64,000 bases of DNA from Candidatus Woesebacteria bacterium GW2011_GWF1_31_35. GTDB lineage: Bacteria > Patescibacteriota > Microgenomatia > UBA8517. Both the position numbers and the translations under genes were made by a program. The stretch covers positions 273,564 through 337,563 of the forward strand of contig CP011214.1 of the NCBI GenBank assembly GCA_001029755.1. The letters run 5' to 3'. The notes beneath the pieces were generated by a model. The model did no database searches, was not told the origin of the DNA, and worked only from the letters and a program-made list of their open reading frames with translations. This document shows positions 2,195 through 60,832 of the stretch, piece by piece. The stretch's first letter is position 1; every line of letters starts with the position of its first letter.

Positions 2195-3961
2195 ATGTCC
2201 AAATTTAAAATACTAATGATTTTTGTTTTTATTCTAATTTTCTTATTAAGTATCTGGCATCTAACATCTGGCATTAATGTCTTAGCTGTGGATTGTTTAA
2301 ATATTAATCCAAATACAGTTTCTGCTGGTGATGCTGACTTTTGCATGACAGAATTGGAAAATATTAAAAAACAATATGCACCAGCTCAAGAAAAAAACAA
2401 ACAAGATTTAGCAAAATTACAATCAAAATTAAATGATTTAAATAAAAGAATTACAGTAATGACAACACTACTTAAAAATCTAGAATCAAATATTTCTAAA
2501 AGAGAAAAAGAATCTTCCTATGCACAGAAAATATTGGGGGAAAAAGCAGTAGGGCAATATATAGATATAAGACTATATGATCCTGTTATGTCTATAATAT
2601 CTGCGTCAGACGCCTTAGAAGTATTTAGAATAATTAAAATAAGAGAAAAAGTTGCCGATGCAGATAGAAAAACAATAGAAAAATATTCGGAGGAGATTAT
2701 TAATCTTAAAAATGACAAGTTAAGTCTTGAGAAAAACAAATTACTGTTAGCATCTTTGCAAAAACAAGTTAGTGAAGATACTAAATTTTTAGCAGGAGAA
2801 GTTGCTAAGGTGGACACTTATTTAGCAACTCTTTCAGCAAAACAACAATCATTTTTGGCACAAAAACTTGAATCATTAGGACTTTCTAGGTCTGCATATA
2901 ATATGAAGGGAGGATGCTCCAGTGATATAAATCCTTTTAAAAGTCCTGGATTTAGTCCTGCATTTGCATTCTTTAGTTTTGGTGTTCCAAATAGAGTTGG
3001 AATGAATCAGTTTGGAGCAAAAGGAAGAGCTGAAGCAAATCAGGATTACGAAGAAATACTTAGGGCTTACTATAATGCTGATATAACAAGAGGTTATAGT
3101 ACTGGAATAACTATCAATGTAGTTGGAACAAATGAATTTGGACAGTCATTTAATGAAAATTGGAACATAGAAGATTACGTAAAGCATGTCTACGAAATGC
3201 CTACAAGTTGGACAGCTAAAGATTCGGCTGCTCTTAAAGCTCAGGCTATTGCAGCCAGGTCATATGCTCTTTCATATACGAATAACGGTACTAAATCTAT
3301 TTGTCCTAGTCAAAAATGTCAAGTTGTGAAGAAGGAGATAAATGATGGTAACTGGCAAACTGCAGTAACTGCTACTAGTGGAGTTGTTCTCACAAATGGA
3401 GGAAAACCAGTAACTGCGTGGTTTTCATCGACACATGGAGGTTATGCTTATACATCAGGAGATATCGGTTGGTCAAATACTGCGTGGACAAAAAGGTTGA
3501 CTGACGCAATAGGAGGTATTAATGGTTTTTCAGATTTATTTAATAATGCTTACGACAAATCTTCGCCAACTTTTTATTGTGATTGGGGAAGCAGATCTCA
3601 ATACAACAAAACAGCATGGTTAAAACCTGATGAGATTGCAGATATTGCAAATGTTATTCTTCTTGCAAAAGCTGATGGTTCTACTCAAAGACATCTTGCC
3701 CAGCCAGATAAACCAAATCCTGATGGAGTCGATACTTGGGATGCCTCAAAAGTTAAAAATGAACTTACAAGTCGTGGAATAACACCATTTGATTCGGTTT
3801 CAAATATATCTATTGGTGTAGATTTTGGAAGTGGAAAAACAACTTCAGTTTCTATAGATGGAAGATCTTTTGACGGTCAAGATTTCAAAAGTTATTTTAA
3901 TCTTCGTGCGCCTTCTAATATTCAAATAGTTGGACCACTCTTTAATATAGAGAAAAGATAA
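2195..3961 (+). CDS. SpoIID/LytB-domain protein with N-terminal TM anchor and coiled coil
   Basis: 588 aa. N-terminal TM, ~200-aa coiled-coil region, and a C-terminal domain carrying SpoIID/LytB signatures (ALKAQAIAARSYALSY; KCQVV; AWFSSTHGGYAYTSGDIGW). Confidence 0.55.
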   Translation: MSKFKILMIFVFILIFLLSIWHLTSGINVLAVDCLNINPNTVSAGDADFCMTELENIKKQYAPAQEKNKQDLAKLQSKLNDLNKRITVMTTLLKNLESNISKREKESSYAQKILGEKAVGQYIDIRLYDPVMSIISASDALEVFRIIKIREKVADADRKTIEKYSEEIINLKNDKLSLEKNKLLLASLQKQVSEDTKFLAGEVAKVDTYLATLSAKQQSFLAQKLESLGLSRSAYNMKGGCSSDINPFKSPGFSPAFAFFSFGVPNRVGMNQFGAKGRAEANQDYEEILRAYYNADITRGYSTGITINVVGTNEFGQSFNENWNIEDYVKHVYEMPTSWTAKDSAALKAQAIAARSYALSYTNNGTKSICPSQKCQVVKKEINDGNWQTAVTATSGVVLTNGGKPVTAWFSSTHGGYAYTSGDIGWSNTAWTKRLTDAIGGINGFSDLFNNAYDKSSPTFYCDWGSRSQYNKTAWLKPDEIADIANVILLAKADGSTQRHLAQPDKPNPDGVDTWDASKVKNELTSRGITPFDSVSNISIGVDFGSGKTTSVSIDGRSFDGQDFKSYFNLRAPSNIQIVGPLFNIEKR

Positions 3962-4950: not shown

Positions 4951-6384
4951 ATGCCCTTAAAACTAATATCAAACAAAGGTAAACTTTCTTCCCTTGGTGT
5001 TGGATCAATCTCCTACCATTTGGGAAAAATTCATATAAATTTAGAAAACTATTGTCAAGCCATTCTATTAAGAGATGGAAACAATATTAAACTTTTAGAA
5101 ACTAATTCTATAGGTTCTTCAATTACTGGAATACCTAAAGAAGGCGACGTTTATACATTGGGATCAATTGAAAATTTTAAGAATAATGAAAGTCTTGAAA
5201 TTTTAACTGTAAAAGTTGAAAAACAAAATTTCTCAATTCCTCTTCCTAAATTTCCTAGACAAAACTTCTTTGTTAATAATAATAACTCAAACAATGAAGC
5301 AACCCCACAAGCGAGAAAAACAACATTAACAGTTGGAGTGGTTTTATTGATTTTACTTTTAGTAAGTGTATTTTTTGGAGTAAGACAAAAAAGATTAAAT
5401 GAATTCCAAGAAAAATCCAAAGTTTTACTTACACAGGCATTATCAGATTATGAAAATTCAATTAATTCAATTTCAATTGATAAAGACAAATCTAGGGAAC
5501 TTTTTATTTCTTCAAAAGAAATTGCATTTAAATTAGAAAAAGATGGATTTAAAAGTGATGATCTAAAAAAATTAATAGAAAAAATAACTTCTCAAGAAGG
5601 AGAGATCTTGGGGGAAATAAAAGCAACAGTAAATGAATTTTTAGATTTAACTCTTCAGACGAGTGGTTTTAATGGCGATGAAATTGCATCCTCTGGTGAA
5701 GAAGTTTTTGTAATTGATAAGAAGAACAAAAATATAATTCAGATTGGAATTAAGACTAAAAATGCAACGATTGTAGCAGGATCAGGAGAAGTTGGAGAAA
5801 CAACCCAAATTGGAGCATATGAAGAAAGACTTTTCCTTCTTAAAAATGACGGAATTTATGAAGTTAATAATACAAGTAAAAAAGTATTAGAAAAAGACTG
5901 GAGTGATGTGTTGTTTTATTTATACGCTGGAAATATTTATTTAATTGATAAAACAAATAATACAATTTTAAGATATGCAGGAAGCTTAAATAGTTTTTCA
6001 GCAAAATCAGACTGGCTAGCTCCAGGAATTGAAGCTGATTTTTCAAAAGTTAAAGATATATCAATTGACGGAGCAATCTGGCTTCTTTCAAGTTCTGGAA
6101 AAGTAGCCAAATTTATACTAGGAAGTCCACAAGCTATATCCTTAAAAGGACTAATAGGTCAACTTGATAATCCAACTGCAATTTATACAAATGAAAATTT
6201 AAAAATGGTCTATATTTTAGAAAAGGACAAAGGAAGAATTGTTGTTATTGAAAAAAAAGGAGACTTTAAAATCCAATACACATCGGATGATATTAAAAAT
6301 GCAAAGGATTTAGTTGTTTCTGAAACTGAAGGCAAAATAATTCTTCTAACAGGACCAAAACTTATGTTTATAGAACTAAAATAA
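4951..6384 (+). CDS. Hypothetical single-TM protein
   Basis: 477 aa with a TM helix near residue 125-145; no motif I recognise. Confidence 0.3.
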   Translation: MPLKLISNKGKLSSLGVGSISYHLGKIHINLENYCQAILLRDGNNIKLLETNSIGSSITGIPKEGDVYTLGSIENFKNNESLEILTVKVEKQNFSIPLPKFPRQNFFVNNNNSNNEATPQARKTTLTVGVVLLILLLVSVFFGVRQKRLNEFQEKSKVLLTQALSDYENSINSISIDKDKSRELFISSKEIAFKLEKDGFKSDDLKKLIEKITSQEGEILGEIKATVNEFLDLTLQTSGFNGDEIASSGEEVFVIDKKNKNIIQIGIKTKNATIVAGSGEVGETTQIGAYEERLFLLKNDGIYEVNNTSKKVLEKDWSDVLFYLYAGNIYLIDKTNNTILRYAGSLNSFSAKSDWLAPGIEADFSKVKDISIDGAIWLLSSSGKVAKFILGSPQAISLKGLIGQLDNPTAIYTNENLKMVYILEKDKGRIVVIEKKGDFKIQYTSDDIKNAKDLVVSETEGKIILLTGPKLMFIELK

Positions 6385-6390
6385 TTAATT

Positions 6391-6760
6391 TGGTGGAGAT
6401 GGAGGGAATCGAACCCTCATCCGAAAAACTTAAAAACAAAACTTCTACAAGCTTATTTAGTTAATAATTTTTCCTTTAAATTTATCCAACTAACAGGAAT
6501 CTAAAGTAAGATTTAATTATCTTTTAAAAAATTTCTCTAAATCAAAAGAAATTAGTTAGCATCTCGAATTGGTTTACACCCAGTCAGTTCAGTCGAGAAC
6601 CAAACGTCAGGACGCTAATTAAGAATATGCCAAAGCATATTGGAAATTAGAAGCATAACTGTTAGGTTTTGCTTTTATTTTTTGATATCTTTTTACAAGT
6701 GTTTATCAAACTTGGCTTGCTGTTTTGTTAAAGAGCTTCCCGTCGAAACCGGTCATCCCC
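6391..6760 (-). ncRNA. ssrA: tmRNA (ssrA)
   Basis: Minus-strand 5' end GGGGATGACCGGTTTCGACGGG (canonical tmRNA start) at 6741-6760, and 3' tRNA-like end GGTTCGATTCCCTCCATCTCCACCA at 6391-6415. Lies directly downstream of smpB. Confidence 0.8.
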
Positions 6761-7184
6761 ATTTTTTCTCTCGTTCTATATCTCTTTCGATGTCTTTTTC
6801 CTTAATACTTTCTTTCTTCTCGAATCTTCTTTTAGGTTTTCCTAAAGTTAATTCAAGTTTAATAAGACGGCCTTTATTATACATCGCAGTAGGCACAATT
6901 TGCAACTTTTTCTGCTTTGTTTTTGTTTCTAATGATAAAATTTCATTTTTATGTAAAAGTAGTTTTCTCATCCTGGTAGGCTCATATTTTTCTATTCCAG
7001 TAGCTGGTATATTTGCATTAATTAAATAAACTTCTCCGTTTAGAATCCTTACATGTGATTGAGATAGATCTACTCTTTTATCTCTAAATGATTTGGCTTC
7101 AATTCCATGCAAAGATAAGCCAGCCTCAATTCTTTCAGGGGTTAATTCATATTCAAACCTAGCCTTTTTATTAATAATTCTCAT
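6753..7184 (-). CDS. smpB: SsrA-binding protein SmpB
   Basis: 143 aa. MRIINKKARFEYELTPERIEAGLSLHGIEAKS matches the SmpB N-terminus. Adjacent to tmRNA. Confidence 0.9.
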   Translation of the reverse strand: MRIINKKARFEYELTPERIEAGLSLHGIEAKSFRDKRVDLSQSHVRILNGEVYLINANIPATGIEKYEPTRMRKLLLHKNEILSLETKTKQKKLQIVPTAMYNKGRLIKLELTLGKPKRRFEKKESIKEKDIERDIEREKKWG

Positions 7185-7201
7185 ATAATGACAATTATAG
7201 T

Positions 7202-7807
7202 ATGGATTTAATAAATTTTCTTTTTCCCAAAGAATGTTTGGAATGTAAAGATACCGGAAGGTATATATGTAGTAATTGTGTCCAAAAAGTTAGAGTAGGT
7301 GGGTTAGTAGAAATTGGTAATTTAAAAGTTTATTCAGTTTGGAAATATGAAGGAGTAATTAGAAAAGCAATAATTTCCTTAAAATATAAATTTGCAACAG
7401 AGATTGCAGAAGAGTTGACTGTTAATATTTCTAATTATTTACCTTTAAAATCCAAGTCTTACATACTTGCTCCAATTCCTATGCATTGGCACAAGAAAAA
7501 TATTCGTGGATTTAATCAAACAGAAATAATTGGAGAGAAATTAGCAAAAATAATGGATTGGAAATATATTCCAAATTTATTACTTAAAAAATCAAAATCT
7601 CTGCCTCAAGTAGGTTTAAAGAGTGAGGTTCGTAGAGAGAACTTATCAGGTGTGTTTGAAATTAACTCAGAAATTAAAATATCTAAAACTTCTAAAATTT
7701 TACTTTTTGATGATGTTTTAACAACAGGTTCCACAATTGTTGAAGCTACAAAAGTTTTAAAGTCTTCTGGATTTAATAATATAATCGGATTAACTATCGC
7801 AAGATAA
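7202..7807 (+). CDS. comFC: ComF-family phosphoribosyltransferase with N-terminal zinc ribbon (ComFC-like)
   Basis: 201 aa. CLECKDTGRYICSNCV zinc finger, and a C-terminal PRTase motif ILLFDDVLTTGSTI. Confidence 0.65.
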   Translation: MDLINFLFPKECLECKDTGRYICSNCVQKVRVGGLVEIGNLKVYSVWKYEGVIRKAIISLKYKFATEIAEELTVNISNYLPLKSKSYILAPIPMHWHKKNIRGFNQTEIIGEKLAKIMDWKYIPNLLLKKSKSLPQVGLKSEVRRENLSGVFEINSEIKISKTSKILLFDDVLTTGSTIVEATKVLKSSGFNNIIGLTIAR

Positions 7808-7822
7808 TTTTATTATATTTTG

Positions 7823-7904
7823 CGGAGGGTACAGGGGTCGAACCTGTTAGAGCTTGCGCTCACGAGTTTTCAAGACTCGCGCGTTGCCGTCCCGCCCACC
7901 CTCC
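7823..7904 (-). tRNA. tRNA-Ser (anticodon TGA)
   Basis: Minus-strand cloverleaf: acceptor GGAGGGT/ACCCTCC, anticodon stem CGAGT/ACTCG with loop CTTGAAA, long variable arm (GAGC-GCAA-GCTC), T arm ACAGG-TTCGACC-CCTGT. Confidence 0.7.
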
Positions 7905-7929
7905 AAATATTTTTTTAGACGTTAATTAG

Positions 7930-8015
7930 CGGAGGATACAGGAGTCGAACCTGTCGGACGCAATTAAGCGTCAAAGTTTAGCAAACTTTTCCCTGAGCCG
8001 TTCGGGATATCCTCC
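7930..8015 (-). tRNA. tRNA-Ser (anticodon GCT)
   Basis: Acceptor GGAGGAT/ATCCTCC, anticodon loop TTGCTAA, long variable arm, T arm with TTCGACT loop. Confidence 0.7.
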
Positions 8016-8638
8016 AGCAAGGCAAATTTTCTCATAAATTCATTGAAAATACCAATTAATTTAAGCTGAATATTAATGTTGTAGTATTTAATTGTGCATG
8101 TACCAAGATATCCTTTTCTGTGTTTTTTATCAGTGGGTTTTGTGATAGTTGGTTTGTAAAATTTATCTGAAGAAATATTAAGTAGATCACTCCAAAATTT
8201 AACAAGATTATTATAATTTTGATTTGAATGAATTTGTAAATGAATTCTAAATTTAGATTCATCTAATTGAAAACTATCTCTCAATAAATTAATAAAACTT
8301 AATATTAAAAGAGGTTCGCTGTTAGTAAATCCTAAGTGTTTTGTGGCTGGGTATTTAGCCCCTTCACATCCATATATAACTCCACATAGTATTTTTTTAA
8401 AATCAGTATTAATATCTATTTTCTGAAATGATTTCGTTTCAGATTTTTTAACGATTTCTCTTTTTAACTCATTATTTTTTATTAGTTTGGTAAATTTACT
8501 AGAGGCCAATCCTCTACACCATGTTGATATGGTTGAGTTATCTATATTCAATCTTCTTCCTACTTCTCTATATGATAGATTGTCCTCAACAACCATTCTT
8601 CTGGCTTGTGTTATGTTGTGATTTGAGTACCTTTTCAT
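7964..8638 (-). CDS. HTH + single-motif LAGLIDADG-like (I-CreI-like) homing-endonuclease-family protein; its 3' end reads into tRNA-Ser(GCT)
   Basis: 224 aa. N-terminal HTH (LSYREVGRRLNIDNSTISTWCRG), then ILCGVIYGCEGAKY, a LAGLIDADG-like motif with Glu at the second acidic position. Clear paralog of 10390..10803 and 57920..58603 (shared YxCEGAK, LVxFW, KxYGT motifs). Its last ~17 codons are templated by the 5' half of tRNA-Ser(GCT). Confidence 0.4.
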   Translation of the reverse strand: MKRYSNHNITQARRMVVEDNLSYREVGRRLNIDNSTISTWCRGLASSKFTKLIKNNELKREIVKKSETKSFQKIDINTDFKKILCGVIYGCEGAKYPATKHLGFTNSEPLLILSFINLLRDSFQLDESKFRIHLQIHSNQNYNNLVKFWSDLLNISSDKFYKPTITKPTDKKHRKGYLGTCTIKYYNINIQLKLIGIFNEFMRKFALLEDIPNGSGKSLLNFDA

Positions 8639-8719
8639 TTGGCAGTTATAGTTAATACTAACTAAACCCGAATATTATGTCAATGATTAATGTGTATTTG
8701 TTTGCAATGAGGTATAATT

Positions 8720-9259
8720 ATGTCTATGGAAGCTGCCAATCAAGATAAAGAGGAAGAAAAGGGCACATTTAAAGAAAATAAGCCTGAAGTGGAGAAAGAT
8801 TTAGTTACTTGGACTGCTCCAGGAAGACCCTTCAAAAGAAGAGATAAACAATTTTATTTAACTACAATTTCAATTGTAGGTTTGGTAAGTTTAATTATCT
8901 TTTTAGCAGAAGGAGCAATGCCAGTAATTTTAATCATTTCATTAGTTTTTCTTTATTATGTTATGAGTACTGTTCCTCCTGAGAATATTGAATATAAAAT
9001 TACCAATAAAGGAGTTAAGGTTGCAGGCAAAAGAACAGACTGGGAAAGTTTTGGTAGATTTTGGTTTAGTAAAAGACATGATAGCGAACTTTTAATTTTT
9101 GAAACATTTCAAGTTCCAGGAAGAATGGAACTTGTGATTGATTCTAATTTTAAAGAACAAATTAAAAAAACTCTTTCAGAATACTTAACTGAAGAAGAAA
9201 TTTCTCCATCAACCCTAGATAAAGCAGTTGATTGGTTTTCTAAAAAACTACCCAACTAA
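8720..9259 (+). CDS. Hypothetical two-TM membrane protein
   Basis: 179 aa, acidic N-terminus, two TM helices. Confidence 0.3.
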   Translation: MSMEAANQDKEEEKGTFKENKPEVEKDLVTWTAPGRPFKRRDKQFYLTTISIVGLVSLIIFLAEGAMPVILIISLVFLYYVMSTVPPENIEYKITNKGVKVAGKRTDWESFGRFWFSKRHDSELLIFETFQVPGRMELVIDSNFKEQIKKTLSEYLTEEEISPSTLDKAVDWFSKKLPN

Positions 9260-9262
9260 ATT

Positions 9263-9334
9263 GTCCCCGTAGTTTAACGGATAAAATATCAGATTGCGGA
9301 TCTGAGGCTAGAGGTTCAATTCCTCTCGGGGACA
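9263..9334 (+). tRNA. tRNA-Arg (anticodon GCG)
   Basis: 72 nt. Acceptor GTCCCCG/CGGGGAC, anticodon stem TCAGA/TCTGA with loop TTGCGGA, T arm AGAGG-TTCAATT-CCTCT. Confidence 0.6.
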
Positions 9335-9370
9335 CAAGGTATAATTAATTTTTAATTAGAACTTTTTTTT

Positions 9371-9455
9371 GGAGGGTGGGCAGGACGGCAATGCGCGGGT
9401 TTCGAAAACCCGTGGGAGCAATCCCTAACAGGTTCGACTCCTGTATCCTCCGCCA
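9371..9455 (+). tRNA. tRNA-Ser (anticodon CGA), CCA encoded
   Basis: Near-identical paralog of the TGA tRNA-Ser at 7823-7904. Anticodon loop TTCGAAA, long variable arm, 3' CCA present. Confidence 0.7.
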
Positions 9456-9476
9456 ATCTGTGTTAAAATACCTTTT

Positions 9477-9914
9477 ATGAAAATTATTAATAATGAAATT
9501 TTGGTAGGTGGAGCTGTTATTTTTAAAGAAGGAAGAGGTAAAAAACATTTCTTACTTTCTAAAAATGCAGAAGGAAATTGGGAAATATTAAAAACTACAG
9601 TTAGAAGAGGTGAGTCTTCAGTTAGATCAGTTATTCGTTACACATCAGAACAAGGGAACATGGCTACAAGAGTTTTAGATGAAGTAGGAAGAGCAGTAGG
9701 AGCAGGAACAGTTAACAACAGAAGTATAACTTTTAAATATATTTATTATTTAATGCTTTTTAAAGCAGGTGCTGAAATTACTGGCATGGGTGAGATTTCT
9801 TGGTTTGATAAAGATCAAGCAATTAAAAAACTAACTTTAAAAAGAGAAAAAGATATGATTAAGACCGCAAATACAATGATTAAAGAATGGGAAAAGTTAA
9901 ACAAGAAAAAATAA
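9477..9914 (+). CDS. NUDIX-like protein (degenerate Nudix box)
   Basis: 145 aa. Position and size resemble the neighbouring NUDIX hydrolase but the GX5EX7REUXEEXGU box is not clearly conserved. Confidence 0.3.
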   Translation: MKIINNEILVGGAVIFKEGRGKKHFLLSKNAEGNWEILKTTVRRGESSVRSVIRYTSEQGNMATRVLDEVGRAVGAGTVNNRSITFKYIYYLMLFKAGAEITGMGEISWFDKDQAIKKLTLKREKDMIKTANTMIKEWEKLNKKK

Positions 9915-10336
9915 TTCGTGAGTTTTCTTCAGGGGGTGTAGTTTTTAAAAAGAATAAATGGTTAGTTACGAAATCTTCAGTTAGTGATCTTTATCCAAAA
10001 GCAGTTTGGAGGCTTCCCAAAGGTTGGATAGATGAAGGTGAAACTCTAGAGGAAACAGCAATTAGAGAAGTAAAAGAAGAAGGTGGAGTTGAAGCTAAAA
10101 TTATAGATAAAATTGAGACTATTAAGTATTTCTATAGCTCTTCAGGCAAAGGTAGGATTTTAAAATTTGTGACATTTTTCTTAATGGAATGGACAAAAGA
10201 TTTAATTGGAGGTTTTGGAGATGAAACATCAAAAACTATTTGGCTTCCTTTTGAAAAAGCATATAAACTTTTAAGTTTTTCTAGTGAGAAACAAATTCTT
10301 AAAGAAGCAAAAGAGATTTTAACCCGAGGGTTATAA
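9887..10336 (+). CDS. NUDIX hydrolase
   Basis: 149 aa. Nudix box GWIDEGETLEETAIREVKEEGGV. Confidence 0.65.
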   Translation: MGKVKQEKIIREFSSGGVVFKKNKWLVTKSSVSDLYPKAVWRLPKGWIDEGETLEETAIREVKEEGGVEAKIIDKIETIKYFYSSSGKGRILKFVTFFLMEWTKDLIGGFGDETSKTIWLPFEKAYKLLSFSSEKQILKEAKEILTRGL

Positions 10337-10389
10337 GAAAATACAAATTTGGTATTGCTTATTTATTCGGATTTAATTAGGATTAATTA

Positions 10390-10803
10390 ATGGGTATGTC
10401 TAATCGTGAGTTAACAATATTAGGTGCAGCACTGTATGCCTGTGAAGGTGCCAAAGAACGAATTGATAACAGAGGTAGAAAACAATATGCTATTGATTTT
10501 ACAAATAATGATCCTAGATTAATAAAGTGGTTTTTAAAATTTCTTAGAAATAATTTTAAAGTTGAAGAAGATCGAATTAAGGCACAACTTTTTATTTACC
10601 CTGACCATAATGAACAAAAATTAGTAAATTTTTGGGTAAAAACGACACAAATTCCAAAAATTAGGTTTAATAAGGTTATGCACTTGATTCAAAAAAGTGG
10701 ACGCTTTAAGCCAAGTATTTATGGAACAATGAAGGTGAGATATCATCATAAGGAGCACTTCTTAAAATTGAAAGGTATAATAGACAGAGTTTTCGAAATT
10801 TGA
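10390..10803 (+). CDS. Single-motif LAGLIDADG-like (I-CreI-like) endonuclease-family protein, immediately upstream of tRNA-Ser(GGA)
   Basis: 137 aa. N-terminal NRELTILGAALYACEGAKE parallels the I-CreI N-terminal motif region (EFLLYLAGFVDGDGS). Paralog of the proteins at 7964..8638 and 57920..58603. Stop codon is 4 nt before the tRNA. Confidence 0.4.
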   Translation: MGMSNRELTILGAALYACEGAKERIDNRGRKQYAIDFTNNDPRLIKWFLKFLRNNFKVEEDRIKAQLFIYPDHNEQKLVNFWVKTTQIPKIRFNKVMHLIQKSGRFKPSIYGTMKVRYHHKEHFLKLKGIIDRVFEI

Positions 10804-10807
10804 AAAT

Positions 10808-10900
<93 letters not shown>

Positions 10901-23944: not shown

Positions 23945-24236
23945 ATTTTATTTTATATATATTATGGAAGAAAACCAAAATCAATCTTATTGACGTCCTG
24001 TGATTATATTAAATTGTTCTAGATTAATTTTACCTGAGGCTAAATCAACCCTAGCCTTTTTTATTGCATCCAAATTAATTCTCTATCTAGTTCTACCTGT
24101 CTTGGACTTTGGCTTTTATGACCAATAGTTGGTCTTTAAAGCTTTTTTTTGAGCTGCCTCAATCAATTTTGATGATTCTGACATATGTATATTATAAAAC
24201 TAAAATAAAAAACAATCTATTAGATATATATCTGGA

Positions 24237-24289
24237 TCGAGAATCGTAGCACTAATCTAACCACGCAATTATCTTGTATTTTCAAGGCT
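24237..24289. repeat. Repeat B copy 1: degenerate tRNA-Asn T-arm/3'-end-like element (~55 bp core)
   Basis: TCGAGAATCGTAGCACTAATCTAACCACGCAATTATCTTGTATTTTCAAGGCT, about 85% identical to 26228-26280 and partially to 25957-25982. Its reverse complement resembles the tRNA-Asn 3' half (GGTT..GTACGATTCTCGAGCCA vs GGTTCGAGTCCTACCGGGGGAGCCA). Confidence 0.6.
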
Positions 24290-24344
24290 CTCTTTGACTT
24301 TAGGCTTGTAGCTCAAATTAGGGAAGAAATAAAGAAAATAAAAT

Positions 24345-24713
24345 TTACAATGCAAGTAATTCCTTGAATACAAATTTTCCGCCTTGGGAGGGAAGCCCAA
24401 ATCTATTTACTTCATGGCTACCTGGTTTGAAGAGCAAAATTATTCCCATAATTACATTTGCAAGAGGAACAAAAACTAGTAGACTTAGCCACCCTGATTT
24501 ATCTAAATCATGTAGCCTTCGTGTAAATACGGAAAACATAAACAAAAATAACAAAAGAGACAATATTGTTGAAATAATATTTATTAAAGTATTACTGGGT
24601 GTCATTTTCATGATTTCACTTGCAAGCCAAAAGGCACCCCAAGACATCAAATTACCAACTAGATAAGCTAGCGAACCTATTCTTCCTGAATATAATCTTT
24701 TGAAAAAATCCAT
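24345..24713 (-). CDS. DUF805-family inner-membrane protein
   Basis: 122 aa. FTRRLHDLDKSGWLSL motif typical of DUF805. Confidence 0.55.
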   Translation of the reverse strand: MDFFKRLYSGRIGSLAYLVGNLMSWGAFWLASEIMKMTPSNTLINIISTILSLLLFLFMFSVFTRRLHDLDKSGWLSLLVFVPLANVIMGIILLFKPGSHEVNRFGLPSQGGKFVFKELLAL

Positions 24714-24769
24714 AATTTCAGTTTATGCTTTGTTAAATTAAAAACAAGTTGTCATACGATAATTTTGGG

Positions 24770-24812
24770 TATATTAAGTGCCAACTGGCCCCGCGCAATA
24801 GACGATGTTCGA
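24770..24812. repeat. Repeat A copy 1: pseudo-copy of the tRNA-Asn 3' end plus downstream flank (att-like)
   Basis: TATATTAAGTGCCAACTGGC (identical 20-mer also at 26208 and 27088) followed by CCCCGCGCAATAGACGATGTTCGAAC, which on the minus strand reads GTTCGAAC...CGCGGGGCCAGTTGGCAC, a decayed copy of the tRNA-Asn T-arm/acceptor 3' strand. Confidence 0.6.
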
Positions 24813-24819
24813 ACTTATT

Positions 24820-25860
24820 TTATTTCTGTGGAGAGTACTTGAAATTCACGTTATGTTGTTTAACAGGAAGCTGATATCCATCAGTTTCAAAAGGATAAGC
24901 AAGAACTCCGCTGGGGAAAATTGCATCAGGACTATAACTTTGCCAATAGAAGAACGAGCCAGGTTGAACAAGGTGAAGATGTATGTCCCCCCTTTGAATG
25001 TTCGGATTTACTGATGTATCCGGTACATCGAAGTAGAAGTCAGCAAAGGAGTGAGTACCAACACTACCCAATGCCGGTACAGTGCCAGCAAATCCAATTA
25101 GTTCCCCACGTTTTACCTTGTATCCGATTAGGGCACCGTATGAAGCTGCATTACTCGTGGGTGAAACCGAATAGTTTCCATCCCAAAATATTTGGTATCC
25201 CTGGGCTGGCGCTGCCATGAGGTCGTTACTTGCCCTTTGAGTGTGTCCGGTCAATAGAGGTGAGGTTAATAAGTGATATACAGTCAAATACACTCCCGGC
25301 CAATCAGGACTTGTAGACTCGAAAAATAATTTCACATCATCGGAATGGGCAGATATTCCTCCCGACACAATCTGGGTACTGGTATCTCGAAAGCCAACTA
25401 GCATCATATCGAATGGTGCGAGTACCGGCGAACCGCCTTTATAAGTTTCAAAACTCATGCCAGGCTTATGTTGGTAAGGTTTCCAGCCTGGGTGGCCACC
25501 AACCTTTGGGCCTAGTGTAATTATGTCAGGGTCAGCACCCGTACCATATAACTCTGTATGGGTATTAATACCATCCATACTGGGTGGTGGTAAAGTTATT
25601 GCAGATGCGCTTGTTTTAGGCACGCTTTGAATAGGTATTGTAGTTGACGTAAGGGCGGAAGTGGGTGTTGAAGTCGGGGCTATGGCGGTATTTTTTATTA
25701 ACAGATACACACCTGCTCCAACAATGATCAAAAATATAATTATGATTAAAATCAATTTCCATTTATTTTTAATGGTAGGAATTTTGCTAATTGGTTGTGG
25801 GTTTGGTTGAGTTACTGGAATTTCATTTTGAATAGGATTGGGCGGAATATTGGGATCCAT
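24820..25860 (-). CDS. Secreted/membrane-anchored protein, possibly an M23/LytM-like metallopeptidase; GC-rich foreign gene
   Basis: 346 aa. Pro-rich N-terminus, one TM, a Thr/Ser/Pro linker, and a domain with SAHSDD and GDIHLHLV (HxH-like). GC content of this gene is roughly 45-50% versus ~30% elsewhere in the window. Confidence 0.35.
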   Translation of the reverse strand: MDPNIPPNPIQNEIPVTQPNPQPISKIPTIKNKWKLILIIIIFLIIVGAGVYLLIKNTAIAPTSTPTSALTSTTIPIQSVPKTSASAITLPPPSMDGINTHTELYGTGADPDIITLGPKVGGHPGWKPYQHKPGMSFETYKGGSPVLAPFDMMLVGFRDTSTQIVSGGISAHSDDVKLFFESTSPDWPGVYLTVYHLLTSPLLTGHTQRASNDLMAAPAQGYQIFWDGNYSVSPTSNAASYGALIGYKVKRGELIGFAGTVPALGSVGTHSFADFYFDVPDTSVNPNIQRGDIHLHLVQPGSFFYWQSYSPDAIFPSGVLAYPFETDGYQLPVKQHNVNFKYSPQK

Positions 25861-25956
25861 GAATTAATCATTCCAGAAAGCAACAAGGAAGTCAATCTGA
25901 GGCTAATTTACTCCCGTGACGGTCTAAGCCATTTTATGATTATAGTCCTATCTTGC

Positions 25957-25982
25957 TCGAGAATCGTAACTCTAATATAACC
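25957..25982. repeat. Repeat B partial copy (TCGAGAATCGTAACTCTAATATAACC)
   Basis: Matches the 5' part of repeat B at 24237 and 26228. Confidence 0.45.
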
Positions 25983-25991
25983 TAAGAATTG

Positions 25992-26198
25992 TCACTTGTT
26001 TAAATCGAAATTTGAAAGAAATACAAGAACATCGTTCATAGGATTACTAGATGGTTTTGGCAATATTTGACAATGATAGCCTTGTTTTTGATAACTTACC
26101 CCAACACAATCCCATTGAAAATATCTTGAAGTTAAATTCATCCAAAGAACAAATAAGATAAACGCAGATAATAATAATAAACCAACTTTCTTCATCAT
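25992..26198 (-). CDS. Small secreted hypothetical protein
   Basis: 68 aa with an N-terminal signal/TM segment; weak call. Confidence 0.2.
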   Translation of the reverse strand: MMKKVGLLLLSAFILFVLWMNLTSRYFQWDCVGVSYQKQGYHCQILPKPSSNPMNDVLVFLSNFDLNK

Positions 26199-26207
26199 AT
26201 TTTATTA

Positions 26208-26280
26208 TATATTAAGTGCCAACTGGCTCGAGAATCGTACCACTAATATAACCATGCAATTATCTCATATTCTCAAGGCT
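26208..26280. repeat. Repeat A copy 2 fused to repeat B copy 2 (pseudo tRNA-Asn 3' half plus flank)
   Basis: TATATTAAGTGCCAACTGGC followed by TCGAGAATCGTACCACTAATATAACCATGCAATTATCTCATATTCTCAAGGCT. Confidence 0.6.
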
Positions 26281-26368
26281 TTTGAAGATTTCAAATTGGT
26301 GTCCCAAGTTCGGGAGGAAATAGAGAGAGTAAAAATAATTGAAAAAATTGTGATAACATAGAATATAT

Positions 26369-27046
26369 ATGGAAAATCAAGATATTCAAAACCCAACTCC
26401 AGAATCAACCTTAACTCCAGTACAAGTTTCTGAACCAAGAGCCAAATTCCCTGTCGTGTACTTAGTTTTGTCTTTATTTGTTCTTGTACTTTTAGCTTCG
26501 ACGGTGTTTCTTTATTATCAAAACATACAACTCAAAAATATGCTTGCTAGCTACCAAACTCAGCCTGTAGTTTCACCTACCCCAACCACATATCAATCTC
26601 CAATTCCATCAACCACGGCGGACCTAACCGCCAATTGGAAAATATACACTGATAGCAAAGTGGGTTTCAGCCTAAAATATCCGAATGGGTGGTCTTACAA
26701 ACTAGGTGATACAAATTCGACTACTGGCAATGTAATCTTTGACACAAATTTGGCAAGTGGCAACAAAAATACGAATTATATATTTGATGTTAGTCTCGAG
26801 ACTATGGACAATCTAAACCAGTGGACAAAATATTCAACAACAACAGCTCTCGGTTCTCAGACGGTAAATGGATTGTCTTTTGAAAAATATGTCGTTGCTG
26901 ACATGTATTATTCATTGAATTACATTCTTAAACAAAACGGAAAAATTCTTCGATTCCTTTTATACCCGTATGATTCTAATCAATATCCGACAGAGCTAAA
27001 AACCAATATTGATCAAGTCCTCTCCACTTTTAAATTTATCAATTAA
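26369..27046 (+). CDS. Membrane-anchored extracytoplasmic protein, paralog family member 1 (conserved C-terminal [DN]Q[IV]LSTFKFI)
   Basis: 225 aa. Short cytoplasmic N-terminus, one TM, Pro/Thr linker, ~130-aa C-terminal domain (WKIYTDSKVGFSLKYPNGW ... DQVLSTFKFIN). Paralogs at 39185..39910 and 44771..45484. Confidence 0.4.
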   Translation: MENQDIQNPTPESTLTPVQVSEPRAKFPVVYLVLSLFVLVLLASTVFLYYQNIQLKNMLASYQTQPVVSPTPTTYQSPIPSTTADLTANWKIYTDSKVGFSLKYPNGWSYKLGDTNSTTGNVIFDTNLASGNKNTNYIFDVSLETMDNLNQWTKYSTTTALGSQTVNGLSFEKYVVADMYYSLNYILKQNGKILRFLLYPYDSNQYPTELKTNIDQVLSTFKFIN

Positions 27047-27087
27047 GTTTTGACCAGCCATTTAAGTCTTAATGAAGCTGAACTTGG

Positions 27088-27107
27088 TATATTAAGTGCC
27101 AACTGGC
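27088..27107. repeat. Repeat A copy 3: the authentic 3' flank and last nucleotides of tRNA-Asn
   Basis: TATATTAAGTGCCAACTGGC overlapping the 3' terminal GCCA of tRNA-Asn (27104-27107). Confidence 0.6.
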
Positions 27108-27179
27108 TCCCCCGGTAGGACTCGAACCTACAACCTTATTCTTAACAGGAATCTGCTCTGCCATTGAGCTACAGGGGAT
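27104..27179 (-). tRNA. tRNA-Asn (anticodon GTT), CCA encoded
   Basis: Minus strand: acceptor TCCCCTG/CGGGGGA, D arm GCTC-AATGGCA-GAGC, anticodon loop CTGTTAA, T arm GTAGG-TTCGAGT-CCTAC, 3' GCCA. Confidence 0.8.
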
Positions 27180-27248: not shown

Positions 27249-28412
27249 ATGTGGCTAACAGAAGAATTAAATAATCTAAAAAAATCAGGACTTTATAATA
27301 ATATTTTAACCATAGAAAGTCCTATTGGGGGAGAGATAATAATTGAAGGAAGGAAACTACTTAATTTTTGTTCTAATAACTATTTAGGTCTTGCAAATAA
27401 TCCTCGTCTTAAAAAAGCAGCAATCGCTGCAATTAATAAGTTTGGTGTTGGTCCTGCTGCAGTTAGAACAATTGCAGGAACTACTACTTTACATAAAAAA
27501 CTTGAAAAAGACTTGGCAAAGTTTAAAAAGTGTGAAGCTGTTCTTACCTTTCAAAGTGGTTTCATGGCAAATTTAGCTACAATTCCTGCTTTAGTTGGTG
27601 AAGGAGACTTGATTTTTTCGGATGAACTTAATCATGCCAGTATTATTGATGGTTGTAGAATCTCAAAAGCTACAGTTATTCGTTTTAAACACGCAGATAC
27701 TGTTGATTTAGAATCTTTACTTAAAAAAGCTTCTAAAAAAGTTAAGAAACTAGTAATTACTGATGGAGTATTTTCAATGGATGGAGATATTGCACCCTTA
27801 GATAAAATTTATAAAGTAACTTCAAAATATGGAGCACTTTTAATGGTTGATGATGCACATGGTGAGGGAGTATTAGGTAGAAATGGTAGAGGAATTGTTG
27901 ATCATTTTAATCTTCATGGAAAAGTTGATATTGAAGTTGGAACAATGAGTAAAGCCCTTGGAGTTGTTGGAGGTTTAGTTGCTGGTAAAGGTGAAATTAT
28001 AGAATGGTTAACCCAGCGCGCTAGACCATTTCTTTTTTCTTCAGCTATGACAATTCCTGATGTCGGAGCCTGTATTGAAGCTGTAAAAATTTTAGGAAGC
28101 TCCGGCGTCTTAGTTAAAAAACTTTGGAGTAATGCGGATTATTTAAGTAAAGGTTTAAGTAGATTTGGGTTTGATACAGGTAAAAGTCAAACTCCCATAA
28201 TTCCTTTAATGTTGGGGGAAGTTACTTTGGCAAAAGAATTTAGTAATTTACTTTTTGAAAACGGAGTATTTGCAAAAGCAATTGGCTATCCGACAGTTCC
28301 AGAAGGGAAAGCAAGAATTAGAATAATGAATACTGCGGTTCACACCAAAAAAGACCTTGATAAAGCTCTTTTGGTTTTTGAAAAAGTAGGTAAAACTTTA
28401 AAAGTAATTTAA
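27249..28412 (+). CDS. Pyridoxal-phosphate-dependent glycine C-acetyltransferase / 8-amino-7-oxononanoate synthase family enzyme (Kbl/BioF-like)
   Basis: 387 aa. [21 protein letters not shown]...[15 protein letters not shown] and the PLP-lysine region GTMSKALG. Confidence 0.7.
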
Positions 28413-29365
28413 CATCTTACATTAGCTCCACAATTCTGACAATTAGATATTAGTTGTCCAGATGGTCTTCTGTTAGTTGCACCACAACTTGGACAGGGAA
28501 ATTCTAAGGATCCATATTCATCTGAATATCCAAATGCAAGTGTTTGTGTTTCAGTATTTAGGCCATTTGTATTTAAAAGAGTGATATTTGATTTTCCACA
28601 TCCTGATTTTTCAAGATTCATTCCAAATCCTGCTTTTTCCATTTCTGTCTCAATATAGGCTCCATATTCAAATGGATTACTATAAATTACTGATAGGTTT
28701 TTCATAATTGGTTTATTTACAATAGTAGCTTTTTTTAAAGCTTTGGCTTTATTTTTGACAGCTGTTCCATCTAAAATACTTTGAAAAATTTCTTTTTCTG
28801 GTAATTTGATTATTTCAGACAGATAACTAAAAGGATCTTTCTCTGGTGGTATTTCTAATTTAATTACAATTGATTTTAAATCATCTAAATTTTGTGGAAA
28901 TAGATAATTATTTGAAGAAACAGATACAAGCAGTTGACCAAGTTTTAAACAATCATCTTTTGACAAAGTTGTACTTATTCCATAAGATTCAAAATATTCA
29001 AATTTTTTGCTTTTAGTAATTCTTTTTGCACCTATGTCAATTCTTGTTTCAGGCCAAGGATTTGGTGGACTAATCCAAACATAAGCAAAATTTTCGGTAT
29101 CTTCAAGAAGGAGTTTTCTTATTTCTTCACCAGCAGGAGTTAGAGGATCGTTTCTTACAAACATTTCTGAAACATCTCTTCTATCTATTCCTGGAGCAAT
29201 AACTTTATTTCTCTCTCTTTTTATATAATGATGTGGATTCACTCGTGGATTTCCAGTGTTTGAAGCTTCAATAACAAGAGAAGCTGTGTCATTATTTAAG
29301 GAAGCCAATTTCTGGGGAGTATCGTATCTTCTTAGATCTAGTGCAATAAATTGTTCTTTTGACAT
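28409..29365 (-). CDS. Hypothetical soluble protein with C-terminal double-CxxC zinc ribbon, preceded by a cobalamin-riboswitch-like leader
   Basis: 318 aa. C-terminus [28 protein letters not shown]. No other motif I recognise. Confidence 0.35.
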
Positions 29366-58618: not shown

Positions 58619-58691
58619 GGCTCGGTAACTCAGTGGTCAGAGTGCCAACCTTATAAGTTGGAAGTCGATGGTCCGATCCCATCCCGAGCCA
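58619..58691 (+). tRNA. tRNA-Ile (anticodon TAT / UAU)
   Basis: 73 nt. Acceptor GGCTCGG/CCGAGCC, D arm ACTC-AGTGGTCA-GAGT, anticodon stem CCAAC/GTTGG with loop CTTATAA, T arm GATGG-TCCGATC-CCATC. No encoded CCA. A TATAAT box lies at 58603-58608. Confidence 0.65.
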
Positions 58692-58709
58692 CTAAATTAT
58701 TATTAACCA

Positions 58710-59135: not shown

Positions 59136-59999
59136 TTATAGCTCAATTAAAGACTGTTTTTTACTTGATTCTGTAGTTCCTGCAAGTTCAATATATCTTT
59201 CTGTGGTTGAAAGTCTTTTATGTCCTGCAACTTGAGAAATTAAAATTAAATCAACTCCATTTTTAATGTTTTCTACAATAAATGTGGTTCTTAAATCGTT
59301 TACAGAATATTTTGGAAGTTCTGCTTTTTGAATAAATCTGTCAACTGATGCTCTTATATTTCTAACTGCAAGTGGTTTTCCGGTCTTACTGATAAAAATA
59401 TATTCGGAAACCACTTTTGGTCTTTCAATCATATACTTTTCAATTGCTTCTTTTGCTGGTTTATTTAAAGGAATTGTTCTTTCAGGTTGTGTTGCATAGC
59501 CCTCAATCTTTATAGTTTCTTCATTAATATCAGCAGTTTTAATATTAGCTACTTCTGAAATTCTTAAACCAGTTTGAAGTATTAATTCAATCATTGCAGA
59601 TATTCTAGGATCATTTCTTACAGCATCTCTTAAAGCTCTATACTCTAAAGGAGTTAAAAACTTAGGCATTGAAGCCTCCACCTTAGGATGAGATACACTT
59701 TTAGATAAATCAGTTGAAAGATAGTTTTGTTCTACCATCCATCTAAAGAATGTTTTAACAGCATTTAATTTTCTAGAAACTGATTTTGGTGTATATTTTT
59801 CAGAAAGTAGGGTATCTCTAAATGAATCTAAATTAGAAAGTTTAACTTGGTCTGGAGTTGCAATACTACCTTTAGTCAAAAATTCCACTAATTGCTCAAG
59901 ATCAGATCTATACGCTAAAATCGTGGCTGGAGACCTACCTTTTTCAGCCAAACTTGCCATGAATTTTGGCAATAAACTTTTAATTGTATCCTGTGTCAT
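59136..59999 (-). CDS. Tyrosine site-specific recombinase (XerC/XerD-like)
   Basis: 287 aa. N-terminal SAM-like domain and a C-terminal catalytic region with R...HxxR...Y (GHKRLSTTERYIE). Confidence 0.75.
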   Translation of the reverse strand: MTQDTIKSLLPKFMASLAEKGRSPATILAYRSDLEQLVEFLTKGSIATPDQVKLSNLDSFRDTLLSEKYTPKSVSRKLNAVKTFFRWMVEQNYLSTDLSKSVSHPKVEASMPKFLTPLEYRALRDAVRNDPRISAMIELILQTGLRISEVANIKTADINEETIKIEGYATQPERTIPLNKPAKEAIEKYMIERPKVVSEYIFISKTGKPLAVRNIRASVDRFIQKAELPKYSVNDLRTTFIVENIKNGVDLILISQVAGHKRLSTTERYIELAGTTESSKKQSLIEL

Positions 60000-60749: not shown

Positions 60750-60823
60750 GGCAGGGTAGCTCAGTTGGTTAGAGCACTGGATTCATATCCCAGAGGTCGT
60801 GGGTTCGATCCCCACCCCTGCTA
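60750..60823 (+). tRNA. tRNA-Met-type (anticodon CAT), intronless
   Basis: 74 nt. D arm GCTC-AGTTGGTTA-GAGC, anticodon loop TTCATAT, T arm GTGGG-TTCGATC-CCCAC, acceptor GGCAGGG/CCCTGCT (G1·U72 wobble). Confidence 0.75.
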
Positions 60824-60832
60824 CTTAATTAG

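Follow-up and report, generated by a model that had tools for sequence, protein, structure and literature searches.

The window analyzed here, a 64,000-nucleotide stretch of Candidatus Woesebacteria bacterium GW2011_GWF1_31_35 (contig CP011214.1, positions 273,564 to 337,563), carries downstream of a tRNA-Asn gene a gene, hereafter the M23-like gene, whose product belongs to an unannotated protein family with a modeled M23/LytM fold but without the metal ligands that define M23 metallopeptidases. Lateral transfer of the gene is strongly supported, and the family has moved between bacteria of the candidate phyla radiation (CPR), Chloroflexi, and archaea. As to function, we lean toward an autonomous, exported protein that would be directed at cell walls and would use a rebuilt active center. 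The family, recorded everywhere as "hypothetical protein," is among the most conserved exported proteins common to CPR bacteria, DPANN and other archaea, and Dehalococcoidia, organisms that cohabit groundwater and sediments and whose cell–cell interactions are poorly understood.

An exported family with an M23/LytM-like core

The M23-like gene is a complete open reading frame (ORF) on the minus strand (24820..25860) that starts with ATG and encodes 346 amino acids plus a stop codon, with exactly the translation described in the original prediction. Its product was deposited by NCBI as a hypothetical protein (AKM83145.1 / KKP23168.1, Candidatus Woesebacteria). The protein has 423 homologues (E ≤ 1e-3), none of which is annotated or contains a Pfam domain, and the ratio of nonsynonymous to synonymous substitution (dN/dS) is ~0.16; the gene is real and under strong purifying selection. 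The protein is organized as follows, all segments lying on the minus strand:

25759..25860 (-): proline-rich cytoplasmic tail, amino acids 1-34, with nine prolines, ending in KNKWK; varies among homologues
25693..25758 (-): single transmembrane helix (signal anchor), amino acids 35-56; helix 33-56 in the AlphaFold model
25621..25692 (-): Thr/Ser/Pro-rich linker, amino acids 57-80; predicted local distance difference test (pLDDT) score <50
25486..25620 (-): family-specific conserved N-terminal extension, amino acids 81-125, VPxTSASAITxPPxSMxGINTH…ITLGPK, including H101 (63/68); low model confidence
25000..25485 (-): M23/LytM-like beta core, amino acids 126-287, with Y129, K132, E138, D151, D175, Y195-H196, R251, H270, and N285-P286
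24823..24999 (-): conserved C-terminal extension past the canonical M23 domain, amino acids 288-346, with H296, Q299, W306, and E325, …LHxVQPGSFFYW…GVLAYPFE…NFKY

The proline-rich N terminus, transmembrane anchor, Thr/Ser/Pro linker, and two motifs named in the original prediction, SAHSDD (from amino acid 170) and GDIHLHLVQPG (from amino acid 291), are thus all present in the translation, and the helix appears in the structural model. In the C-terminal extension, AlphaFold2 modeled a strand at 295-298 and the remainder with low confidence. Positive charges ahead of the single helix argue for an N-in, C-out orientation of the anchor. Homologues carry lipoprotein-type leaders (…LLGAC, …LVGC; …GAC/…GC) in place of the helix, and those of Dehalococcoidales have a twin-arginine (Tat) leader at the same position. 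Since the helix is swapped for lipoprotein or Tat leaders, the conserved module, from about amino acid 81 onward, is predicted to lie always outside the cytoplasm, the leader being fitted to each host. The earlier proposal of a secreted, anchored protein is therefore borne out by the window protein and by its homologues.

The domain of the window protein had no match in Pfam (including Peptidase_M23), NCBIfam, PHROGs, or, by phmmer, the PDB sequences, and neither Pfam nor NCBIfam has a model of the family. When 1.84 billion representatives were searched exhaustively with a profile, only 93 clusters emerged, so the family is narrow. The proposed resemblance to M23 nevertheless stood at the level of fold and remote homology. 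In an AlphaFold2 model built from 83 sequences, the core (amino acids 130-300) reached pLDDT values of 80-96. The most distant members of the profile (P0195-P0206) scored 24-31 bits against Pfam Peptidase_M23, for which the threshold is 28.7, and a profile that included distant members matched the PDB sequences of zoocin A (2.3e-5), LytU (2.6e-5), and lysostaphin (3e-4), within a range of 2e-5 to 1e-3 for PDB M23 chains. Together, the model and the profile matches identify an M23/LytM fold and remote homology to M23.

M23 peptidases are defined by the motifs H(x)nD and HxH, in which two histidines and one aspartate bind zinc, and their catalysis is assisted by a further histidine ~30 residues before HxH and by a tyrosine (PMC9662197). 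We counted conservation over 68 sequences from bacterial and archaeal genomes. Hidden Markov model (HMM) alignments to zoocin A, LytU, and lysostaphin placed the first histidine of HxxxD on K132 and its aspartate on position 136; the register of the motifs was taken from these HMMER alignments, the hhalign match being too weak to fix it. The positions of the canonical ligands are occupied as follows:

Position 132, canonical first zinc-binding His: K in 64, H in 4 (n = 68)
Position 136, canonical zinc-binding Asp: E in 36, S in 12, G in 10, V in 4, D in 3 (n = 68)
Position 272, canonical first His of HxH: F/M (ungapped family alignment)
Position 274, canonical second His of HxH and zinc ligand: D in 27, S in 20, P in 15, A in 6 (n = 68)

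In this register, all three canonical zinc ligands are lost as conserved features. A sister subgroup has the motif GNNPHIGF, which puts a histidine at 272; the family studied here has an invariant histidine at 270 instead. The two motifs that had been read as the metal site do not take its place. SAHSDD, proposed as HxxxD, follows the PVLAP strand, and its H172 occurs in just 20 of the 68 sequences; HLH, proposed as HxH, lies outside the canonical domain, with H294 in just 15, and the invariant H296 stands 10 residues past N285-P286, which aligns with the C-terminal "DP" of canonical M23 domains.

Other residues are kept throughout. Y129, D175, Y195, H196, R251, H270, H296, Q299, and W306 are invariant (68/68), and E138 (67/68), D151 (67/68), and H101 (63/68) are nearly so. 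H196, in the motif VYHL, is the equivalent of LytM His260; Y129 aligns with the tyrosine of zoocin "GYPGH," from which we infer its register to LytM Tyr204. Further features common to M23 (PF01551) are the stretches "gtPVlAp.D," "YxHL," and "kvk.GelIGf.G.tG," the terminal "DP," a tyrosine upstream of the first motif, and export. Unlike M23, the family has K132, a variable residue, and D/S/P/A where the zinc ligands should be; the histidine of its HxH region comes two residues earlier; conserved extensions of 45 amino acids at the N-terminal side and 60 at the C-terminal side bring in an invariant His, Gln, Trp, and Glu of their own; and the window protein scores below Pfam detection. With its zinc motifs unconserved and no Pfam match, the protein is by formal definition not a member of M23; its sequence would fit a degenerate LytM domain or, alternatively, a derivative whose center has been rebuilt.

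We also considered that the protein is a conventional zinc M23 endopeptidase after all, its ligands being misaligned and supplied by other conserved residues such as H196, H270, and H296 or H101 and E138. The conservation of these residues and the clear M23 character of the fold speak for this. However, two independent HMM alignments (one to zoocin A, one to lysostaphin/LytU) put the histidine on K132 and the aspartate on the variable position 136, HxH falls on F/M and D/S/P/A, and Pfam does not recognize the domain; we therefore consider a conventional zinc enzyme quite improbable. The members P0195-P0206, close to the Pfam threshold, form a sister group of ~260-amino-acid lipoproteins with K…S at the HxxxD position and "H-F/I-S" at HxH. 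Loss of the zinc ligands may thus predate the present family and extend beyond it.

The family is rare: a single scan across 185,579 species genomes yielded 73 loci. Members of at least 70% identity come from many CPR classes. Among those of 45-58% identity are Dehalococcoidia and further Chloroflexi; archaea of the Hadarchaeota, Bathyarchaeia, Aenigmatarchaeota, Nanoarchaeota, Micrarchaeota, and Woesearchaeota, together with one Thaumarchaeota metagenome-assembled genome (MAG); and single Planctomycetota, Nitrospirales, and actinobacterial MAGs. A locus of Oligoflexus matches at 38% identity. Three MAGs labeled "uncultured Gammaproteobacteria" (L011, L014, and L030) have CPR-type copies, 54-89% identical over the conserved domain, which sit downstream of tRNA-Asn with GIY-YIG, Fic, and NUDIX cassettes; their labels may be wrong.

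Lateral transfer and the tRNA-Asn islet

The M23-like gene had been singled out as compositionally foreign, and its base composition agreed. Its guanine-plus-cytosine (GC) content is 42.9%, compared to a window mean of 31.7% (z = 4.5; 1041-nt windows, sd 2.5%), which ranks it first among the 1041-nt windows of the 64 kb, the runner-up having 37.5%; in 120-nt windows, GC runs at 0.42-0.50 across ~24900-25740. GC at third codon positions (GC3) is 0.346, compared to 0.175 ± 0.036 in the 63 other ORFs of the window (z 4.7), while at first and second positions z is 1.4 and 2.6. Because GC3 is also outlying, the excess is not solely a by-product of a Gly/Pro/Ala-rich protein. Across 67 loci, GC of the domain spans 0.39-0.59, mostly ~0.45, while that of the flanks spans 0.29-0.66 (slope 0.24). 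Relative to its flanks, the gene is rich in GC where the host is AT-rich (the window, L001, and L037) and poor in GC where the host is GC-rich (0.47 vs. 0.65 in L061; 0.45 vs. 0.58 in L026).

The gene has no shared neighbors in nine annotated contexts. A neighbor-joining tree interleaves CPR bacteria, Chloroflexi, and archaea, placing Moranbacteria among Nanoarchaeota and Aenigmatarchaeota and one Dehalococcoidales copy within the CPR clade. A comparison with a second Woesebacterium, L001, set the gene against the syntenic backbone, using amino acid identity, third-codon identity, and synonymous divergence (dS):

M23-like domain, window vs. L001: amino acid identity 87%, third-codon identity 78%, dS 0.39
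NUDIX (syntenic backbone), window vs. L001: amino acid identity 60-61%, third-codon identity 37%, dS saturated
LapA-like (syntenic backbone), window vs. L001: amino acid identity 33-34%, dS ~3.4

DNA similarity between the window and L001 is confined to 25912->24783, i.e., a 52-nt 5' flank, the ORF, and a 37-nt 3' flank, at 85% identity; the genes around it differ. Homologues at the same locus in relatives had been named as a finding that would speak against transfer. L001 and L012, which are also Woesebacteria, indeed carry the gene behind tRNA-Asn. However, DNA identity of the cassette is 85% while silent sites of the backbone are saturated, which argues for transfer into a shared hot spot over vertical descent. 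A native, vertically inherited Woesebacteria gene, its GC content arising from a constrained Gly/Pro/Ala-rich protein, would account for the raised GC1 and GC2 and for the shared position in L001 and L012. It would not account for the GC3 outlier, the third-codon identity of 0.78 vs. 0.37 for NUDIX, the ~85% identity of noncoding flanks amid differing genes, or the low GC relative to flanks in GC-rich hosts, and we consider it highly implausible. Together, GC3, host-independent GC, the mixed tree, and the silent-site contrast with L001 strongly support lateral transfer.

The unit that moved is a self-contained one of ~1.13 kb, made up of the ORF, a promoter-like site ahead of it, and a short 3' flank:

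25861..25912 (-): 5' flank moving with the gene, 52 nt, common to L001; holds the promoter-like TTGACT-17-AATGAT (25895->25867), which ends 7 nt before the ATG within the L001-conserved flank
24783..24819 (-): 3' flank moving with the gene, 37 nt; ends …GCGCGGGGCCAG, like the 3' end of a tRNA acceptor; fused to repeat copy X3 (below)

As originally described, the gene lies in a tRNA-Asn islet, with tRNA-Asn(GTT) 1.2 kb upstream on the same strand. A tRNA-Asn is likewise upstream on the same strand in L001, L005, and L006. Counted over all loci, a tRNA lies upstream of the gene and on its strand 22 times (Asn 11, Asp 3, Ser 3, Gln 2, Arg 1, Gly 1, and Ala 1) and in any other position only 4 times (binomial p = 2.9e-10). 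Significant host-specific direct repeats of 15-176 nt, spaced 1.1-1.6 kb apart, bracket the gene in 14 of the 57 loci that could be tested, and in L005, L014, L030, L034, and L055 (Nanoarchaeota), these repeats copy the 3' end of the host's own tRNA. The 3' end of the M23-like gene itself was rejected as an embedded tRNA-Asn copy: a 14-nt anticodon-arm match (D18) lies in protein-constrained sequence, and its spacing is 30 nt too long. A search for the empty site by exact-protein look-ups of DUF805 and the aminotransferase gave no matches. Small GIY-YIG genes (~100 amino acids) recur beside tRNA-Asn and the M23-like cassette (L001, 7606-7905; L014, 3604-4301), and in L074, a 176-nt bracketing repeat (3705-3880 and 5014-5191) includes the 3' end of a GIY-YIG gene; involvement of these genes in cassette movement is conceivable.

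In the window, the islet holds two families of repeats, X and Y, anchored at the tRNA:

27104..27178 (-): tRNA-Asn(GTT), islet anchor
27047..27107 (+): X1, 22-codon remnant of a recombinase C terminus (…LNEAELGILSANWL) running into the 3' end of tRNA-Asn; attR-like
26197..26227 (+): X2, repeat copy fused to Y3, upstream of a 68-amino-acid ORF; attP-like
24759..24789 (+): X3, att-side repeat (GCCAGTTGGCACTTAATATA on the minus strand), right after the 3' flank of the M23-like gene
24208..24349 (+): Y1, ~140-nt repeat, the other arm of an attP-like site, adjoining DUF805
25935..26001 (+): Y2, truncated Y copy directly upstream of the 5' flank of the M23-like gene
26191..26338 (+): Y3, Y copy fused to X2

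X1, X2, and X3 are exact 20- to 22-mers, and the 16-mer GTTGGCACTTAATATA has three exact copies in the window, compared to 0.08 expected. The plus strand of X3 is an 8- to 9-codon remnant (…LGILSANW) of the end of a large serine recombinase gene. A 20-mer of X is present in >119 metagenome contigs from several aquifers and sediments; in contigs with enough sequence, X forms the final 20 nt of a gene (520-550 amino acids) that runs into the 3' end of tRNA-Asn. The hallmarks of this gene, i.e., a catalytic …YARISTLDQ…, a CxxC…C zinc ribbon, a coiled coil, and the C terminus …EVEYTPALQVLNEAKLGILSANWL, identify its predicted product as a large serine recombinase. Intact copies are found at L126 (6928-8574), L163 (3-1571), L111 (10671-12242), L160 (4135-5763), L141, and L174, and their ORFs read straight into the complement of tRNA-Asn (…ANWLPREDSNLQP…).

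Since the recombinase gene ends in X and abuts tRNA-Asn, the X-tRNA junction at 27047-27107 is probably attR-like, and the X-Y junctions would be attP-like scars. The attachment (att) site would then overlap the end of the recombinase gene, whose C terminus would differ between the integrated and excised forms. The islet as a whole (24208-27107) looks like a decayed array of integration events with ORF225, ORF68, the M23-like gene, and DUF805 as cargo; the recombinase itself is absent from it, only remnants of 7-22 codons being found. Decayed tandem elements at the 3' ends of tRNA or tmRNA genes are known as streptococcal cis-mobilizable elements (CIMEs) and as the ssrA-specific islands of Dehalococcoides, which are driven by serine recombinases. 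The islet resembles these in its short cargo segments between att repeats and in lacking a recombinase that is intact at the same tRNA elsewhere; it differs in that its repeat takes in the terminal 7-22 codons of the recombinase gene, as att overlaps the 3' end of that gene, and in that the M23-like gene is found in no intact element. The islet thus reveals putative tRNA-Asn-targeting large-serine-recombinase elements of Microgenomates whose att overlaps the recombinase gene end, and such elements would explain the build-up of foreign single genes at one hot spot in small CPR genomes.

Repeat Y is ~110-140 nt long, with 76% identity between copies, and all three window copies lie in the islet. 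Elsewhere, it occurs once or twice in L001 and five times in L006, between cassettes. Y had no Rfam match (only tRNA was found) and no consensus pairs in RNAalifold, and the ideas of a structured RNA and of an attC site were both rejected. Its opposite strand reads as a conserved peptide, as that of a small protein gene might, but the homologue search gave only 37 tiny ORFs and no parent gene. On the opposite strand, X and Y form an open frame, …ILSANW-LENRNTNITTQLSHI…REEIEKV*; a continuation of the recombinase reading frame through X and Y explains the Y peptide better than a small protein gene does. An integron cassette was likewise rejected: Y is without consensus structure, inspection found no GTTRRRY/RYYYAAC cores, and the sole tyrosine recombinase of the window is 33 kb off.

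Position within a region of integrative-element scars might also suggest that the M23-like gene is a phage endolysin or tail-associated lysin left by a prophage. However, we found no relative in 2.9 million viral contigs, no domain-level PHROG match (two weak matches, E 0.003 and 0.017, fall on the N-terminal transmembrane/linker region), and no phage genes nearby in any locus, and most endolysins have no fixed N-terminal anchor or lipoprotein leader of this kind. A phage origin is accordingly very improbable.

Proposed function

In the model that we favor, the M23-like gene is horizontally acquired cargo in a variable islet downstream of tRNA-Asn, and its product would be held in the membrane by one N-terminal helix, with the M23/LytM-fold domain and its family-specific extensions displayed outside. 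The protein would work alone, extracellularly, on a peptide substrate common in the environment, most likely the peptide part of other cells' peptidoglycan, either in attack on a host or competitor or in digestion of wall debris. Its rewired center may be built from Tyr129, His196, and His270 together with the new invariant His296, with Lys132 at the place of the first zinc ligand. We hold this reading, i.e., an autonomous, exported, wall-directed protein with a rebuilt center, to be somewhat more probable than not; its substrate, catalytic competence, and mobilization route are points that we infer.

Several observations lead to this preference. Members of the Dehalococcoidales have lost peptidoglycan synthesis (PMC10284905), and archaea lack peptidoglycan (PMC5744192); as the gene is kept in Dehalococcoidales and archaea, a role in the wall division machinery of its owner is unlikely there. 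Export, purifying selection, solitary travel, and retention in hosts without peptidoglycan fit an autonomous activity better than a partner-dependent factor, and the M23 fold would make peptidoglycan peptides of other cells the likeliest substrate. PMC12455944, with reference to Jaffe et al. 2016, reports that CPR and DPANN have exchanged membrane-related genes. The lytic or predatory function that had been suggested for the gene is possible.

The main competitor is a noncatalytic, degenerate LytM domain, serving as a peptidoglycan-binding scaffold or hydrolase activator (as do EnvC, NlpD, DipM, and ActS) or as a host adhesin of an ultrasmall cell. The absence of the canonical H(x)nD and HxH ligands favors this, and degenerate LytM folds have been reviewed as functional protein hubs (PMC9662197). 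Like EnvC, NlpD, ActS/YgeR, DipM, Csd2, and SpoIIQ, the protein would combine an M23 fold with an incomplete zinc site. Those factors, however, are chromosomal housekeeping proteins tied to partners (amidases, FtsEX, Csd1, and SpoIIIAH), and the known activators need an amidase and division machinery in the same cell, whereas the M23-like gene is single and mobile, travels alone across phyla and domains, and is kept in lineages that lack peptidoglycan (PMC10284905, PMC5744192). No cognate partner emerged as a conserved neighbor in the nine annotated contexts, whole genomes not having been searched for amidases. In addition, the family retains catalytic residues other than the ligands, unlike degenerate LytM factors: the tyrosine, His196, His270, and other His, Asp, Arg, and Gln residues are invariant across bacterial and archaeal members only 45% identical, which is more typical of an active site than of a docking groove. 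We take a noncatalytic role seriously, although we judge it on the unlikely side.

A metal-independent M23 derivative can also be envisaged, in which the nearly invariant K132 would replace the metal, H196, H270, and Y129 would complete the center with H296, and the one-gene cassette, spreading among subsurface CPR bacteria, Chloroflexi, and archaea, would serve as a weapon or feeding tool against walled bacteria, even for owners that make no peptidoglycan themselves. We regard this as a tentative proposal, rather unlikely in this precise form.

A number of points weigh against the autonomous wall-directed protein that we prefer, and catalytic competence is where it is weakest. The canonical zinc ligands are lost. 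The best structural match of the model is EnvC, whose LytM domain is noncatalytic; AlphaFold2 performed poorly on the conserved segments 81-121 and 305-346; and hhalign of the close family against the approximate catalytic domain of lysostaphin aligned only 21 columns, at a probability of 38%. The tree is a neighbor-joining tree without support values, archaeal and other taxon labels are those of MAG records, and Pfam annotation of the flanks of the archaeal-labeled L048 and L057 found no taxon-diagnostic families. Within 5 kb of the gene, no recombinase was present in any of ~80 loci, and the M23-like gene is missing from every contig that bears the recombinase, which suggests a passenger of integration hot spots, not a regular part of an element; the route by which the 1.13-kb unit was mobilized would thus be indirect.

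A precedent for the proposed role is the GH25 lysozyme family, which has been transferred across domains of life (Metcalf et al. 2014, PMC4241558). As in GH25, a gene for a putatively wall-directed exoprotein is patchily distributed in bacteria and archaea via repeated lateral transfer; unlike GH25, the fold is M23-like, any catalytic activity is putative, and the spread is centered on subsurface communities of CPR, DPANN, and Chloroflexi. If the protein is active, it would extend M23 chemistry past its defining zinc site and be the second wall-directed gene to cross domains, after the GH25 lysozymes; if it is not, it would be a degenerate LytM factor that is mobile and independent of a partner, the first of its kind. 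Specialists would be surprised by the spread across domains, the retention in hosts without walls, and the lysine in place of a metal ligand.

Other features of the islet and the window

ORF225 (26369..27046, plus strand) ranks second in the window as a GC3 outlier (0.314) and has no family match. It is built like the M23-like protein, with a Pro/Thr-rich tail, a transmembrane helix, an S/T/P linker, and a domain of ~130 amino acids. It occupies the place expected of the recombinase gene, and its frame past the stop continues into the recombinase remnant. ORF225 was rejected as a partner gene, being dissimilar to the gene that lies downstream in L001. Repeat X holds an outward promoter-like site, TTGGCA-17-TATGAT / TATCGT (26222->26194 and 24784->24756, minus strand), recognized by consensus match only; these sites face the next downstream genes, ORF68 and DUF805. 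Att-scar arrays of the tRNA-Asn islet type are also present at L006 (4046-12283), L001 (7458-7599), and L123.

Positions 6391-10899 of the window contain a tmRNA gene as well as four tRNA-Ser and one tRNA-Arg in a cluster ~16 kb from tRNA-Asn. At L101 (1560-9073) and L158 (774-8211), four tRNA-Ser and two tRNA-Arg lie 3.3-5.4 kb from tRNA-Asn, with an X copy ~0.3-2.4 kb beyond. An ORF of 318 amino acids on the minus strand (28409-29365) carries a CxxC…CxxC zinc ribbon at its C terminus and matches no family of Pfam, NCBIfam, or PHROGs. The sole tyrosine recombinase of the window (59136-59999, minus strand) is XerD-like (phmmer 1.7e-22) and adjoins a tRNA-Ile identified by ARAGORN at 58619-58692 (plus strand), whose anticodon, TAT, is unusual for bacteria; a tRNA-Met follows at 60750-60824.

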